Of a DNA stretch of 64,000 nt, positions 3,549 through 10,088 are shown piece by piece (position 1 is the first letter of the stretch; every line of letters begins with the position of its first letter). Source of the stretch: Candidatus Obscuribacterales bacterium (GTDB taxonomy: Bacteria > Cyanobacteriota > Vampirovibrionia > Obscuribacterales > Obscuribacteraceae); NCBI GenBank assembly GCA_965228855.1, contig CBDDIJ010000002.1, positions 768,001-832,000 on the forward strand, read 5' to 3'. Made by a program: the position numbers and the translations under genes. Below the pieces are notes generated by a model. It was given only the letters and a program-made list of their open reading frames with translations, was not told the origin of the DNA and searched no databases.

Positions 3549-5021
3549 ATGAGCCTTGCAATCAACCTCGAGTATCAACCTTACGTTCCGCTCTACAGGA
3601 GGCTTTCGGATGCCTTGAGGAAGGCGATTTTGGACGGGCGGTTGCGACACGGAGACGTTTTACCATCGACACGCGAACTGTCGGCGACGATGAAAGTTTC
3701 GAGAGCCACTGTGCTCAAAGCTTTTGACGATCTCGAAACGCAGGGATTCATCAAATCAGTACCGGGAAAAGGTCTATTCGTTCGCTACGCGCCCACTGTT
3801 GAAAAGGTTGTAGCAGATCAGTTCTCCCTGCAAAAACAACTGATCCTATCCGATTACGCTCACCGAGTATTAGCACTAAGAAAGCACGAGTCAATCGTGC
3901 ACATTCCGGCAACAAACTTCGGCGGTCCAACAGCTGACCTGAGTCCACTTCATGAATGGCGCCAGCTCTTATTTCGTTACTGTCGACGATCGTTTTTGTC
4001 TGAGTCCAGCGAGTTGACGTGTATTTCCGACGAGCTGGAGCCGTTTGGGTACGAACCGCTAAGACAGGCTCTGGCTGCCTATCTTCATCGCTCCAGAGCG
4101 ATCCGGTCCGCAGCAGATCAAATCGCTCTCTTTTCGACAAAACAGGCACGGCTCGAGTTGATAGCACGGATGCTTCTTGATGCAGGAGATCTGATCGCTT
4201 TCGAAGATCCCGGATACCCAGAAGCACGTCACCTTTTCTTGTCGCATGGAGTCCGCGTTTTAAGCGTGCCGATCGAAGCTGATGGTATCAACGTTGATTG
4301 GCTCGCACAAAAACATCTGCCCATCAAATTCGTTTACGTGACACCCTCTCATCAAGATCCAACCGGCGTGACAATGTCGATGGAAAAACGTTTCAAACTT
4401 CTCGAATGGGCTCGAACCACAGGCGCTTATATAATCGAAGACGACTACGATTGCGAGTATAGTCACGGCAAAAAATCGCTGCCCTCTCTAATGGGGATGG
4501 ACCGAAATGACAACGTGATCTATCTTGCTTCATTGTGGAAGGTTTTGTTTCAGGTAAATCGATTCGGTATTGTCGTCTTACCGCGAACATTGATACCAGC
4601 TGCGGTGCAAACCAAGTTACACATGGAGAGACACTTGCCTCTGTTAGATCAGCTGGTAATGACCGATTTCATCAACGAAGGTTTACTCGAGCGACATATT
4701 CGAAGAACTCAGCAACGCCTTGCCCGAAAACGGCAAATAATGATCTACGGGCTTACAAAGAACATGCAATCCTTTCTCACTGTTCCAAAGGAAACTGCTG
4801 GAATGCATCTTGTCGTAAGATTTTTCGAGGAGATATCAGAGACCGACATTGAGAATTCGGCGCGCGAATGCGGAATCACTCTTACTGGAACATCCGCCTA
4901 TTATGCCGAAGAAAAGCGCTGTCAGGGCGAATACATCATCCCGTTTTCAGGTGTTGATGAGACTTCTACCGAAGAGCTCGTCGCGAACTGGGCATTGCAG
5001 CTCAAGAGGCTGCAGCAATGA
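3549..5021 (+). CDS. MocR/GabR-type GntR regulator with aminotransferase-like domain
   Basis: N-terminal wHTH (LPSTRELS...VSRATV), FEDPGY, YVTPSHQDPTG, IIEDDYD. Confidence 0.93.
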   Translation: MSLAINLEYQPYVPLYRRLSDALRKAILDGRLRHGDVLPSTRELSATMKVSRATVLKAFDDLETQGFIKSVPGKGLFVRYAPTVEKVVADQFSLQKQLILSDYAHRVLALRKHESIVHIPATNFGGPTADLSPLHEWRQLLFRYCRRSFLSESSELTCISDELEPFGYEPLRQALAAYLHRSRAIRSAADQIALFSTKQARLELIARMLLDAGDLIAFEDPGYPEARHLFLSHGVRVLSVPIEADGINVDWLAQKHLPIKFVYVTPSHQDPTGVTMSMEKRFKLLEWARTTGAYIIEDDYDCEYSHGKKSLPSLMGMDRNDNVIYLASLWKVLFQVNRFGIVVLPRTLIPAAVQTKLHMERHLPLLDQLVMTDFINEGLLERHIRRTQQRLARKRQIMIYGLTKNMQSFLTVPKETAGMHLVVRFFEEISETDIENSARECGITLTGTSAYYAEEKRCQGEYIIPFSGVDETSTEELVANWALQLKRLQQ

Positions 5022-6520
5022 CGAAAAAATCCGATGCGCCCAGCATGATGAGGATTGGTCATTCTGTCGTCCTACTGGATAGAACCGGCGGAGCGACACG
5101 ACAGCGACAATTGACCGATCAGATACGACGGGCAATCATAGACGGGGCCATTGAGCCTGGCTCCAAATTACCGTCCGTGCGTGAATTTTCTGCCGGACTC
5201 GACGTTTCTCGCTCTACTGTAGTCCGCTGTTTCGAGGAGCTTGCCAGTCAGGGCTATATTGCCACTTCTATTGGTTTTGGAACTGTCGTGTGCAAAAGGC
5301 TTCCGGGCGAGCTATCAGCCCAAGAGATTGCACCACCTGTGGTGCCGAATCAAGAACCCGTCATAAACAAAGTCGGCCTTTCACGCTATGCCTCAAGAAT
5401 TCTCAACGTCAAAGAGGTCGGCTCGCCAAAAGCGGCCCGAGCCTTGAATCCCGGGGGACCGCCGTCCGATGCCGCACCGATTCGAAAATGGCGCGAACTT
5501 TTGGAAAGGCACTGCCGACATAACCTCAATCAGGCAGAATGCGGAACTGATCCTTTTGGGTTGCCACCATTGCGCGAAGCCTACGCGGCCTACTTGATGC
5601 GCAAGCGTGCGCTCCAATGCAGGGCTGAACAGATAATCGTATTCAGTGCTCGGGAGTTACGGCTCGATCTAATCGCACGCATTCTTCTTCAAGAGGGCGA
5701 TGCCGTTGCTGTCGAGAACCCGGGCTATCCAGCCGTCCGACAACGGCTGATTGCAAACGGAGCTCGCGTTGTGCCAATCCCCGTCGATCACCAGGGTCTT
5801 AAGGTCGACTGCCTGGAGATGATGCAAGAACGCGTAAAACTTGTCTATGTGACGCCATCGCACCACGAGCCGACCGGAGCTGTGATGCCCCTGTCACGCC
5901 GACGCAAACTGATTGAATGGGCGAAACAGAACTCCGCGTTTATTGTCGAAGACGATTACGACTCAGAGTTTCGATATGATGGACGTCCCATTCCCTCACT
6001 GCAGGGGCTGGACGACACTGATTCCGTGATTCATCTGTCATGCCTCTGGAAGATCCTCTCACCTGTTTCCAAAATAGGATTTCTGACGATTCCCAATTGT
6101 TTAATCGATGTGTTTCAAGCAGCTAAATCGCTGGTAGAGAGAGATATGCCATTAATCGACCAGTTCGTCCTCACAGATTTCATCAACGAGGGACATCTGG
6201 AACGTCAGATCGCCGCAAACCGAAAAGTCTATGCTACAAGACGCAAACTTCTGGTGGAGGCGCTAAGGAAGCATGTCGGCAGCCTCTCGATTGCCAGTGA
6301 AAGTGCCGGCATGGACTTATTTGTGAAATTTCAAGCCGGTGCGGATGATTCGTTGCTAGTCACGATGGCTGAACAAGCCGGTTTCAAGCTCATTCCCGCC
6401 GGTCCGTACTATTTCGCCGGCGGCGGACAGAACGAGTTTGTCATTCCGTTTTCTCATCTGGACGAGAAACACATCGAATCAATCATTCAAAAGTTCGGCG
6501 CCTCACTCAAAGCTATTTGA
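5018..6520 (+). CDS. Second MocR/GabR-type regulator, translationally coupled (ATGA overlap)
   Basis: LPSVREFS...VSRSTV, VENPGY, YVTPSHHEPTG, IVEDDYDSEFRY. Confidence 0.93.
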   Translation: MTKKSDAPSMMRIGHSVVLLDRTGGATRQRQLTDQIRRAIIDGAIEPGSKLPSVREFSAGLDVSRSTVVRCFEELASQGYIATSIGFGTVVCKRLPGELSAQEIAPPVVPNQEPVINKVGLSRYASRILNVKEVGSPKAARALNPGGPPSDAAPIRKWRELLERHCRHNLNQAECGTDPFGLPPLREAYAAYLMRKRALQCRAEQIIVFSARELRLDLIARILLQEGDAVAVENPGYPAVRQRLIANGARVVPIPVDHQGLKVDCLEMMQERVKLVYVTPSHHEPTGAVMPLSRRRKLIEWAKQNSAFIVEDDYDSEFRYDGRPIPSLQGLDDTDSVIHLSCLWKILSPVSKIGFLTIPNCLIDVFQAAKSLVERDMPLIDQFVLTDFINEGHLERQIAANRKVYATRRKLLVEALRKHVGSLSIASESAGMDLFVKFQAGADDSLLVTMAEQAGFKLIPAGPYYFAGGGQNEFVIPFSHLDEKHIESIIQKFGASLKAI

Positions 6521-6708
6521 GAGGAATTCTATTCTTTCTACTACATCCTTCGTATTTTTTCTACTATATTCTATCAAATACATTCCCAACGTAATAGTAG
6601 AACCTGTGGACGTTTCGACTACTTCCTCACTCAGTCAAATCTCGTTTGGCTACGGGAGAGCGACGGATTTTCGAAAATCCGGCATCGCACCGTAGATAGT
6701 GTGTTAGG

Positions 6709-6714
6709 TGTCAA
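6709..6714 (-). promoter_or_regulatory. -35 box TTGACA at the IS downstream end (half of the junction promoter)
   Basis: In the circular form it lies 17 nt from TACGTT (7942-7947). Confidence 0.8.
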
Positions 6715-7673
6715 GCCAGAGTGCTGTTAAACCTGGAATCGAATGGTTGTTTCGAGCGATATACAGCGACCATCATACGGAGAAGTTTGCGTGAGGCGGC
6801 ACAAACAATTACTTTTCTGTTTTTTCCCTTTGCTGCCAGTCGTTTAGCGAATTCAGCCACTGGCGGATTAAACCGAGTGGCGGTAAGGGCGGCCATGTAC
6901 AACATGCTGCGGATCACTGGATTTCCCATCTTCGAAATTCTGGAACGTCCTCGGACTGAAGAACCGGACTCACGGATCATGGGATTCAGACCACAGAATG
7001 CTTCGATCTGGCGCAAGCTCGTAAACGAGTCCATCATCGACAGTTCTGAGAGAAACGTGAATGCTGTTCTCCAGCCGACGCCCTTAATCGTCTGGAGTAA
7101 TTTAGCGTTGCTTTTCAAAGCAGGATTCTCGGAGACCAGCGTCTTCGCCAGCTTTTCCAGTGTTTGAATTTCGTTGGTAATGAACTTCAACATACGCATC
7201 TGAGAGTCTAAAGCGCGCTGGTCCAGGCGTCCCGATTTCATTCGATTTGTGACTTGGGTTTTGGTTTTCTTTAGCGCAGCGAGCTCTCTACAAATGTCTC
7301 TCAGGGAGCGAATGTCAGGATCCATCGGAGACCAAGGAAGGGGCTCCATTTTAAAACAAAAGTCGGCGATGATTTCCGCATCGATTGCGTCGGTTTTTGA
7401 ACGTCTAAATTGGCTCTTGCCGAAGGCGTGTATCAGCGCTGGATTTACCACGCTGACTCGATAGCCAAGTTTGTGTAGAAACTCCGCAAGGGGCTCCCAG
7501 AGCTTCCCCGTAGCTTCCATGCAAAAGTGAACATCCTTACCGGATGCTTGAATCCATTTGACTATTCTCTTGAACCCAGCTGGGTTATTGCTGACGTGCA
7601 GCTTCGAATTCTTCCTGTCCTGGCGATGGCAGTCTAACGTCTCCTTCGATACGTCGATTCCAACAAAGATCAT
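6711..7673 (-). CDS. IS110-family DEDD recombinase/transposase
   Basis: GIDVSK, MEATG, KTDAIDA (DEDD); C-terminal IKGVG, GLNP..RESGSS, ISKMGN..IRSMLY; RBS AGGAGG. Confidence 0.96.
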   Translation of the reverse strand: MIFVGIDVSKETLDCHRQDRKNSKLHVSNNPAGFKRIVKWIQASGKDVHFCMEATGKLWEPLAEFLHKLGYRVSVVNPALIHAFGKSQFRRSKTDAIDAEIIADFCFKMEPLPWSPMDPDIRSLRDICRELAALKKTKTQVTNRMKSGRLDQRALDSQMRMLKFITNEIQTLEKLAKTLVSENPALKSNAKLLQTIKGVGWRTAFTFLSELSMMDSFTSLRQIEAFCGLNPMIRESGSSVRGRSRISKMGNPVIRSMLYMAALTATRFNPPVAEFAKRLAAKGKNRKVIVCAASRKLLRMMVAVYRSKQPFDSRFNSTLA

Positions 7674-7714
7674 TGCTCCTACCTCCTGTTGCTGGTTCGC
7701 TTGGACGCGGATAG

Positions 7715-7895
7715 AATCTTGTCAGGGCGAGCCTTGTTTACACGTGCTAAATCGGTCAGGATTTGCTGTAGATAGTGTTCAGCCTTAGAGGACAAGACAG
7801 GAGCGGAAGTCCGAAATCTACGCCTCTGACTTTCTAGCCGGAGACAAAATACTGGTTTCTTCCGCTCCTCTATCCTCGCGTCCTCGGATAGCCTT
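7715..7895 (-). ncRNA. IS110 bridge RNA (5' hairpin, target-binding loop, donor-binding loop); ends approximate
   Basis: Stems at 7870-7875/7886-7891, 7799-7809/7859-7869 (11 bp perfect) and 7717-7723/7791-7797. Guides ATTTTGTCT, CGTAG, ACACTATCT and ACAAG match the target and donor. Confidence 0.88.
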
Positions 7896-7941
7896 GCCGA
7901 CTGCACGCTCCTGGTCAACAGCAACGTACCAGTCAACATCT

Positions 7942-7949
7942 AACGTACA
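7942..7949 (-). promoter_or_regulatory. -10 box (TG-TACGTT) at the IS upstream end (half of the junction promoter)
   Basis: TAnnnT directly after the CT core, upstream of the bridge RNA. Confidence 0.75.
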
Positions 7950-8052
7950 AGACAAAAACCAACCGTCAAAAAACGCAGATCCGCGAAACGCCCAACTATC
8001 GAATCTTTTCACCAAAGTGCATCTAGTACCCCATATAGTAGCAAGGGCTGAG

Positions 8053-8104: not shown

Positions 8105-8719
8105 TTAGCGGACGACCTGCCAGCGGTTCGCTTGGTCACCTTCCCAGCGGAGGTGCTGCTTGCGCCCCTGCCAGATCTTCAAACCGTGGCTGCGAAGCAT
8201 CGCTTGTTCCAGTTCGGCCATCGCTTCCGCCTGCCTGCAGAGCGCATGGATCTGTTCCTGGCAGGCGCCGAAACGCCAGCTCATCGAATCCGAGAACTCG
8301 CGCAATTCCTTGTCGTCCGGGTTGGCTTTCGCCTTTTCCCGCAGCGCGACGTCGGCGCCGAGAACATGATTGATCTCCATGTCCCAGATCGCCTGCTCCG
8401 CCTTGCGGCGAGCGTCGAACCAGTTGGACAGCGCGACGCCGACGTTACCCTCGTGCATCACGTCGATAAACGCCTGGCTGCGATTGGCATCGTCCGCGGT
8501 GGCACTCTTCGGCAACGACTCGGCAAGCGCGAGCATCTCGAGGAAGGCCGCTCGCTGCTGTTTCGTCGCAGTGAAGAGCGTTTCGGCCTGGCGCAGGAAG
8601 TCGACCGCACAGAGCACGCTCTTGAACTCCGCGAGGATGTTCTCGAACGTGCGGTCGAACAGTGCAGCTTGCATGGTGTAGAGCGAACGCATGCGCTGCT
8701 GATGTTGTCTCGTGTTCAT
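8105..8719 (-). CDS. Hypothetical alpha-helical protein
   Basis: ATG at 8719 with RBS GGAGGAG; coherent C/G-ending codon bias; 5 nt from the upstream gene. Confidence 0.75.
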   Translation of the reverse strand: MNTRQHQQRMRSLYTMQAALFDRTFENILAEFKSVLCAVDFLRQAETLFTATKQQRAAFLEMLALAESLPKSATADDANRSQAFIDVMHEGNVGVALSNWFDARRKAEQAIWDMEINHVLGADVALREKAKANPDDKELREFSDSMSWRFGACQEQIHALCRQAEAMAELEQAMLRSHGLKIWQGRKQHLRWEGDQANRWQVVR

Positions 8720-8724
8720 GGCTG

Positions 8725-9519
8725 TTACTCCTCCTGCCCGGCAAAATGATAGCTGCCGTCGACATCGAACCAGCACTGGATCGAATTGGAGGCAAGGAGC
8801 GCGTCCAGCGTGTGGTCGAGCGCCTCAGCCTGACGCAACAGCGCCGTGAACTCGAACAGCATCGTCCGGTCGCGAATCGTGAGCACCGACGGCTGGTACG
8901 CCTCGACCTGGGCACGAACAACGGCGTGACCATCGTCCCACGACTCGATCGCTTGACCCAGTTTCTTGCGCATGTTTTCGCGCGTGCGCGCCAGGTCTTC
9001 ACCTTCCGGCGAGCCGAGGAACGCGATGAGTTGCGCGTCCTGAGCCTTGTCGGGATCGTTGCCGAGGCGGGCGCACATGGTTGTCACCGCCGATGATGCC
9101 GTTTCGACGGTCTCCAGTATCGTCGAAACCGCACCACTGGAGATGACCGGATGCACAGCTTTGTTCAGCTGCTTCTTGAGCGTTTCGGCGAGCGAGCGGA
9201 CGATCCGCATCGCGGCACGGTGTTCAGACTGAAGCTGTTTGATCCGCTTCTTGACCGAGATCACGGTCTCTTGCGGATAGAGCTTCTCCTTCGAGGAGAC
9301 GAGGACGCCGTCTTCCCAGGTGTAGGTCCCCTCACCGACTAGCGTCTCCACGCCGTCGACCTCGAGGAAAACCTTGGCGACGCCGGTTTTGTTCGGCGTG
9401 CCGAAACTGAAGCGAGGAGGGCTCCCCGCCAAAAATCCGTAACTGACCAGCTGCACGTCATTGTACGTGACGCGCACGTTGCCCGGTTTGTCACGGGGCT
9501 CGAATAGCTCAACGAGCAT
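8725..9519 (-). CDS. Hypothetical protein (beta-rich N-terminus plus coiled coil)
   Basis: ATG at 9519 with RBS AAGGA; strong codon bias. Confidence 0.75.
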   Translation of the reverse strand: MLVELFEPRDKPGNVRVTYNDVQLVSYGFLAGSPPRFSFGTPNKTGVAKVFLEVDGVETLVGEGTYTWEDGVLVSSKEKLYPQETVISVKKRIKQLQSEHRAAMRIVRSLAETLKKQLNKAVHPVISSGAVSTILETVETASSAVTTMCARLGNDPDKAQDAQLIAFLGSPEGEDLARTRENMRKKLGQAIESWDDGHAVVRAQVEAYQPSVLTIRDRTMLFEFTALLRQAEALDHTLDALLASNSIQCWFDVDGSYHFAGQEE

Positions 9520-9671
9520 TCTTAAATTCCTTCTGCTTGTTTCAGATTCCAGCACCCGCACACGCGGGTACCAGCACGCAGTGGCTCTTGAAGAAGAGGG
9601 GGATAGGCGACCTCAGCCGCCTATCCCCGGTGTGCCCGAGCCAGGACACATCCAGCCTCAAGAAGCTGGAG

Positions 9672-10088
9672 TTAGCGCTTCGGCATCCGCACAGGCAGCC
9701 AGGTGCGGCCCTTCCAGGGCACTTCACCGACCAGCGTGGCGCCGCCAAAGGCGAGCGAGAACGTCACCAGAGCAGCACCGAACCCGCTCGTGACAGAGAG
9801 CGAGCCAATCAGCAGCGACGCCAGTCCGACGCCCAGCCACGAGCCCAGGATGAAGCACAGATACTGAACGACGCGTCCGGTCTGCATGAGTCCGAGAACC
9901 GCGCGCAGAGCGATCGTGACGCCGAGACCGAAGAACATGCCCGTGACGCCGATGATGGCGGCAGCCATGATACCGGTCAGCAGACTGCCGGCTGACACGC
10001 CGACGCCGAGCAGCAGCGTGATTGCGGCAGCCGCGATGAAGTAGCCGTTCATCAGGAGGAAGTGTCGGCTCTTGAATGCGTGACCCAT
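9672..10088 (-). CDS. Small Gly-rich multi-pass membrane protein
   Basis: About 4-5 hydrophobic segments; RBS AAGGA. Confidence 0.75.
   Translation of the reverse strand: MGHAFKSRHFLLMNGYFIAAAAITLLLGVGVSAGSLLTGIMAAAIIGVTGMFFGLGVTIALRAVLGLMQTGRVVQYLCFILGSWLGVGLASLLIGSLSVTSGFGAALVTFSLAFGGATLVGEVPWKGRTWLPVRMPKR

Follow-up and report, generated by a model that had tools for sequence, protein, structure and literature searches.

The 64,000-nucleotide stretch of an Obscuribacterales genome analysed here (the window) contains an IS110 element, element A, which is very probably a complete and recently multiplied insertion sequence of the IS621 type, with four guides that match its own sites and a likely mode of transposition by RNA-guided recombination of a circle into one arm of a palindromic repeat. 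It belongs to a clade in which target and donor cores are often unlike and in which, more tentatively, the bridge RNAs may be wired to join them.

The host genome (G000) carries seven IS110 genes, three of which belong to element A and four to a sister element, element B. The three copies of element A do not differ at a single position across their 1,258 bp, and all are inserted in the sequence TTTGT-CT-ACG. In the window the left junction reads TTTTTGT-CT-TGTAC (7958-7945, minus) and the right junction ACACTAT-CT-ACGG (6702-6690, minus). The orthologous sites of all three copies are empty in a close congener (G007), where flanks 88-95% identical to those of the host enclose a single CT; removal of the element is thus scarless and its boundaries lie exactly core to core, as the initial annotation had drawn them. 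The two additional copies, whose inspection it had called for, share these boundaries. The ends are of the kind seen in the IS110 group: a long left end of 276 nt that holds the guides, a short right end of 15 nt, and short subterminal inverted repeats, which are a described feature of that group (PMC11208160). Membership in the IS1111 group (seekRNA) is ruled out by the 15-nt right end and by the location of the guides in the left end; in that group the guide RNA is found in a long right end and the subterminal inverted repeats measure 7-17 bp (PMC11208160). Judged by its sequence features, element A is an IS621-type member of the IS110 group of the IS110 family, and its matched CT cores are ordinary. 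We firmly infer from the copies and empty sites that it has moved recently; its recent spread suggests that it may also be active. The family is a large one, for which more than 200,000 domain sequences have been catalogued; a GTDB-wide scan with the single element A protein recovered only two loci, at 37-40% identity, and none of the matches listed in our literature search combined IS110 with Obscuribacterales in one paper.

The recombinase of element A scores 233 bits against the NCBIfam model NF033542 (cut-off 140). Its best match among solved structures is the IS621 chain (PDB 8WT6; E=7e-63), and the ISCro4 chain (PDB 9T56) aligns over 314 query residues with E=2e-59. Residues D7, E53, D95, D98 and S236 align respectively with D11, E60, D102, D105 and S241 of IS621, which bears out the earlier reading of an intact DEDD set and serine. 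The equivalents of the core-reading A54/G56/N77 and of the wedge Y259/M260/L263, residues whose roles in IS621 have been described (PMC11208158), are also kept. The open reading frame is intact in all three copies, with every catalytic residue present. Its length of 320 aa, which had been singled out as compact, is not distinctive, the IS621 chain having 328 aa and the family ranging over 300-460 aa (PMC11208160).

Table 1. Coordinates of element A, its predicted bridge RNA, its target and donor sequences and the copies of its sister element (window positions unless a contig is given)
Feature	Position	Strand	Basis or remark
Element A, whole IS110 element	6694..7951	minus	1,258 bp including both CT cores; three identical copies; single-CT empty site in G007
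Left core CT	7950..7951	minus	junction reading, copies, empty site
Right core CT	6694..6695	minus	junction reading, copies, empty site
Subterminal inverted repeat, 5 bp	7940..7944	minus	pairs with 6703-6707 across the donor; read from sequence
IS110 recombinase, 320 aa	6711..7673	minus	PF01548 + PF02371; NF033542; IS621 chain match
-35 box TTGACA	6709..6714	minus	overlaps the stop codon; predicted half of circle-junction promoter
Predicted -10 box TACGTT	7942..7947	minus	3/6 consensus matches; T1, A2 and T6 kept
Target-binding loop (predicted)	7799..7869	minus	stem 7869-7859/7809-7799, 11 bp
Left target guide	7850-7842	minus	in target loop; 8/9 match to left target
Right target guide, 7 nt	7824-7818	minus	in target loop; contains CGTAG (7822-7818)
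Handshake AT	7817-7816	minus	in predicted target loop
Donor-binding loop (predicted)	7717..7797	minus	stem 7797-7791/7723-7717, 7 bp
Left donor guide	7778-7770	minus	in donor loop; 9/9 to left donor with core
Right donor guide, 9 nt, bulged	7741-7733	minus	in donor loop; contains ACAAG (7737-7733)
Handshake GC	7732-7731	minus	in predicted donor loop
Left target, host DNA	7952..7958	minus	opens the left arm of the palindromic repeat; also in empty site
Right target	6693-6689	minus	host DNA within the interrupted REP-like palindrome
Left donor	6696..6702	minus	lies in the 15-nt right end
Right donor	7945..7949	minus	at the very beginning of the 276-nt left end; pairs with right donor guide
Remainder of interrupted ~56-bp REP-like palindrome	6644..6693	minus	nhmmer hit
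Sister element B, G000 copies (L029-L032)	C2:987926(+), C2:198188(-), C5:1462393(-), C5:861234(+)		

All the motifs, junctions, stems and guides named in the initial annotation lie on the minus strand where it had placed them. Its statement that four guides match the element's own sites stands as to their presence, but both right guides had been under-read, the target guide being 7 nt and the donor guide 9 nt long. The left target guide matches 6/7 non-core positions of the left target in the window copy; none of the copies matches it fully (7, 6 and 6 of 8 positions), and the other two are mismatched at guide positions 1-2. The right target guide pairs 7/7 with these other two copies and 5/7 with the window copy, in which two of the five right-target bases are mismatched, and pairing of the right donor guide is 7/7 around a 2-nt bulge.

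The left end of element A folds with z=-3.4. In the minimum-energy fold of the single sequence the guide bases are partly paired, and the consensus fold of 12 orthologs predicts two arms with the guides within two internal loops; 10 of its 41 pairs show changes on both sides, nearly all of them in the target arm. A search against Rfam gave no match at E<=1. The AT handshake is predicted to pair with donor positions 6-7 after exchange, and the GC handshake with target positions 6-7 through one Watson-Crick and one G-T pair. Among the relatives, the second handshake base is C where the target has G6 and T where it has A6, and in 4/20 elements pairing of the handshake is seen at neither position.

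Across the computed circle junction the -35 box and the predicted -10 box are separated by 17 nt, and the layout TTGAC[AT]-17 nt-TA[CT]G[CT]T recurs in 12/12 distinct elements with both ends. A promoter and terminator scan of the linear element returned no hits, including no sigma70-type site, as would follow from a promoter that exists only in the circular form. The end-to-end circle joint was not seen in the Logan contigs of X1, X3 and X4, a form of data that drops rare forms, and the raw-read run X18 has no reads on the stretch. Contig depth over element A is ~2.5-3.5x that of the flanks, a ratio that comes from runs which may be the source of the assembly and is not equivalent to a copy number. 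Whether such elements produce their circle by excising or by copying themselves is a point of disagreement between published abstracts.

A recombinase hit was present at 113 loci, from which the relatives of element A were drawn. Enough upstream DNA was available at 84 of them; the 26 loci with the closest scaffold were parsed, and after setting aside five extra host-genome copies and L052, which is without a left flank, 20 distinct elements were obtained. More distant loci with both ends were dropped, automatic junction calls being too unreliable for them. The left target guide agrees with its own flank at 128/160 positions in the 20 elements (permutation mean 66, maximum 107 in 100,000) and the right target guide at 49/60 positions in 12 elements (permutation mean 25), though these permutation tests overstate significance: there are only 5 guide classes among the 20 elements, four guide registers were fixed after the flanks had been seen, and two loci were parsed anew manually. 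Covariation is seen most cleanly in L045 (85% identical), in which the two outer bases of the right guide have changed and the flank has changed in step, preserving a 7/7 match. Complementarity to the element's own sites is found for the left and right target guides (LTG, RTG) and the left and right donor guides (LDG, RDG) alike, and covariation for the target guides only, since the donor guides barely vary in the clade. Together, the three identical copies, the 3/3 empty sites and the covariation support the boundaries, the IS621-type bridge-RNA architecture that had been read from the window and the proposal that element A has a target specificity of its own.

Some further variants were encountered in this comparison. 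The copy B2 of element B (L029) has one change in its left target guide and the copy of element B in G007 (L004) has two, and each thereby matches its own left flank better (7/8); such variants could mean either that mutated guides chose matching repeats or that guides are copied from their targets. A locus without a recombinase hit, L038 (G003:C17, about 930-1030), bears a donor-loop-like segment of the scaffold, which is possibly an orphan or remnant bridge RNA.

The insertion site of element A is an imperfect palindrome of ~56 bp, entered at one and the same spot by all three copies. A repeat profile built from seven rebuilt insertion sites detects it at 197 loci in the host genome, 167 of them on contig C2; only 9/197 lie within long ORFs and 188/197 outside them, at a long-ORF coverage of 82% of the genome. 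Of the 67 genomic occurrences of the target 10-mer TTTGTCTACG, 45 fall inside the repeat, which covers 0.13% of the genome, and 44 repeat loci still carry a free copy of this 10-mer. REP and REPIN repeats associated with RAYTs have a Y1 (RAYT) transposase beside the repeat or in the same genome. A search for the Y1 transposase (PF01797) found no match in the host genome, which is 95% complete, the control being positive in 6/14 genomes, and we therefore call the repeat REP-like only.

Most of the repeats (163/197 loci) lie within the initial 1.25 Mb of C2, where G+C is 53-59% as against about 50% further on. A second motif, CTACTATAT, has 127 of its 150 genomic copies <=250 bp from a palindrome, mostly 100-140 bp from the palindrome centre and in a fixed orientation, with flanking occurrences in the window near 6561-6569 and 8030-8038, and adjacent palindromes are often 140-180 bp apart. 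The palindrome and the CTACTATAT motif look like a larger, undescribed repeat unit. On the plus strand, two tandem regulators combining GntR with an aminotransferase fold (3549-5021 and 5018-6520) end 124 bp from the interrupted repeat. Upstream of element A are three minus-strand ORFs (8105-8776, 8725-9561 and 9672-10088, encoding 223, 278 and 138 aa), for which a Pfam search gave no match; the DNA of the nearest one is conserved in G007.

As the guides match the element's own insertion sites in the palindromic repeat, element A likely jumps by the published bridge-RNA mechanism. By analogy with IS621, formation of the circle would join TTGACA of the right end to TACGTT of the left end at the 17-nt spacing, and the resulting circle-junction promoter would drive a bridge RNA of roughly 200 nt. 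In a single complex, the target loop of this RNA would pair with the repeat arm and its donor loop with the circle junction, whereupon S236 would cut the top strands after the CT core. The handshake bases, AT against donor positions 6-7 and GC against target positions 6-7, would then favour strand exchange and hence insertion. An abundant non-coding repeat as target would offer the element many safe landing sites.

It is hardly credible that element A is a dead relic or that its guides match their sites by coincidence. When the 276-nt left end was subjected to 20,000 dinucleotide shuffles, the four guide words turned up singly 331, 6,822, 13 and 6,165 times, each of the 5-nt right-guide words (CGTAG, ACAAG) thus occurring by chance in about a third of the shuffles. 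Taken by themselves the two 5-mers are weak evidence; the complete four-guide set, which was recovered in 0/20,000 shuffles, is beyond chance, and the lack of any difference among the three copies, the absence of the element from all three sites in the congener and the guide-flank covariation in relatives also contradict decay or coincidence. We further consider it very improbable that element A merely supplies its own guide RNA and is moved by the recombinase of element B. The two elements do have an identical 14-bp donor and an RNA scaffold that is 81% identical (162/200 columns), and cross-talk of co-expressed IS621 bridge RNAs has been reported (10.64898/2026.04.29.721476); however, the ORF of element A is intact in 3/3 copies with its catalytic residues complete, and neither is element A found at the position of element B nor element B at that of element A (0/8, a small sample).

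A different kind of objection accepts guide pairing as necessary and regards it as insufficient, the hairpin of the repeat being a second determinant of target choice, as described for ISPpu10 (10.64898/2026.03.19.712850). All 8/8 insertions of elements A and B (three A and four B in the host genome and one B in G007), as well as that of L045, lie in the palindrome; a hairpin fold is obtained for the intact repeat at the orthologous site (z=-3.0, with 2/200 shuffles as good), and positions 1-2 of the left guide are often mismatched. Yet with 45/67 of the TTTGTCTACG sites lying in the repeat, finding 3/3 insertions of element A there has an expectation of ~30% from sequence alone, and within the hairpin the two elements occupy separate positions, each of them matching the respective guide. 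We regard a requirement for the hairpin as unlikely, and favor target choice by guide pairing, with element A moved by its own recombinase.

Element B provides a close comparison. Its protein is 51% identical to that of element A and the two are sisters in the protein tree (100/99), from which L014 was omitted as too short; this sister relationship makes it unnecessary to invoke scaffold swapping between them. Apart from its copies in the host genome, there is one in G007 (L004). The insertion point of element B lies about 30 bp beyond that of element A in the palindrome they share, and its left junctions end in GT, the target core, and its right junctions in CT, the donor core. The empty sites of B1 and B3 show a one-base overlap, and the core of the empty site is GT in B1, B3 and B4 and in the host-genome site orthologous to that of the G007 copy, the B4 site being less clean as it lies in a tandem duplication; for B2, the flanks were not found in G007. 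The right end of copy B4 (L031) has C, the base of the target, in place of T at donor position 7, which could be a point mutation or a product of patchy repair of the mismatched stretch after staggered cutting.

Unlike cores recur in the clade. The target core is AT in 14, CT in four and GT in two of the 20 elements. The left target guide follows its target at the core base in 20/20, and in 20/20 CT is read by the right target guide. Every element with a right junction (12/12) has CT as its donor core, and target and donor cores are unlike in 9/12 members with both junctions; empty sites prove the junctions of elements A and B, and for the other elements the left junctions were placed by the conserved beginning of the left end. 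In the unlike-core members of the 20-element comparison the core mismatch is encoded in the guides themselves. Elements with an AT-core target and a CT-core donor fall into two groups, one comprising L005, L011, L014, L047, L048, L063, L088, L089, L110 and L111, and the other L050, L068, L082 and L113; in the second group the donor loop is without handshake pairing to target positions 6-7.

The asymmetry of the guides fits the IS621 structure, in which the core of the incoming donor is paired by the right target guide once exchange has taken place and the T of the core is read by the protein (PMC11208158). We suggest tentatively that the RNAs of the clade may be wired to join unlike cores, the first core base acting as a third handshake position and a single T being shared between target and donor. 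Such wiring would leave a single mispaired position in the donor loop once the strands have been exchanged.

In published work, site pairs for genome editing were filtered for identical cores (10.1101/2025.05.14.653916), the reprogramming described altered both cores together, and CT versus GT cores are described as suppressing cross-talk between IS621 guides (10.64898/2026.04.29.721476). The first core base has been noted as less conserved (PMC11208158), and in the portion of the PMC11208160 supplement that was read by eye 8/207 index-matched target/donor pairs, out of 5,485 published pairs, differ at this base, on which account we rejected the notion that mismatched cores are unprecedented. 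Discussion of mismatched or single-base cores was not found in the open-access papers and preprint main texts consulted. Unlike cores are already in published data, and their fixed, guide-encoded form was not found described in this literature.

Comparison with the published accounts of IS621 of Escherichia coli (PMC11208160, PMC11208158) shows several shared features: a two-loop bridge RNA, predicted in element A, within a long left end; a CT core at both ends; an extragenic palindrome as insertion site; a core-proximal right target guide joined to the handshake (CGTAG then AT); a near-identical donor; and a bulged 9-nt right donor guide. They differ in the left target, in the repeat, the ~56-bp one of element A being unrelated to that of IS621, in the right target guide, which is 7 nt in element A (perfect for 2/3 copies) and 4 bp natively in IS621, and in the host, an Obscuribacterales bacterium as against E. 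coli. ISCro4, or IS622, has the same architecture as described and is active in human cells, where it was used with matched cores only (10.1101/2025.05.14.653916). Element A is at most a candidate for the programmable recombinase that the initial annotation proposed. In a screen of 72 orthologs reported in the ISCro4 preprint, 18 gave junctions in human cells and 1/18 rose above detection in the quantitative assay. Targeting of REP-type repeats is already known for IS621 (PMC11208160) and for ISPpu9 and ISPpu10 of Pseudomonas putida KT2440 (PMC12288879); the latter are, like elements A and B, two IS110 elements in one REP family, and with this precedent we rejected the idea that two IS110 elements in one repeat are novel. 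ISPpu9 and ISPpu10 are described as sharing one target site, whereas the positions of elements A and B are about 30 bp apart in one palindrome, and, unlike that pair as described, elements A and B combine an identical donor with different target cores, CT and GT respectively.

By itself element A is routine, one more well-annotated ortholog, whose boundaries are verified and whose guides can be read, and which is suited to immediate inclusion in an ortholog screen. The clade with guide-encoded unlike cores matters more, because it gives a testable design rule; elements A and B, being almost alike in scaffold and donor, allow matched cores to be compared directly with mismatched ones. Should the proposed wiring be true and the rule prove transferable, one constant CT donor could be directed to every target with an NT core. 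Present-day bridge editors could then do without identical cores and the targetable space could widen, and core-based orthogonality between guides could weaken. Elements A and B would in that case represent a natural retargeting pair, in which one donor is directed to two addresses in a single repeat.
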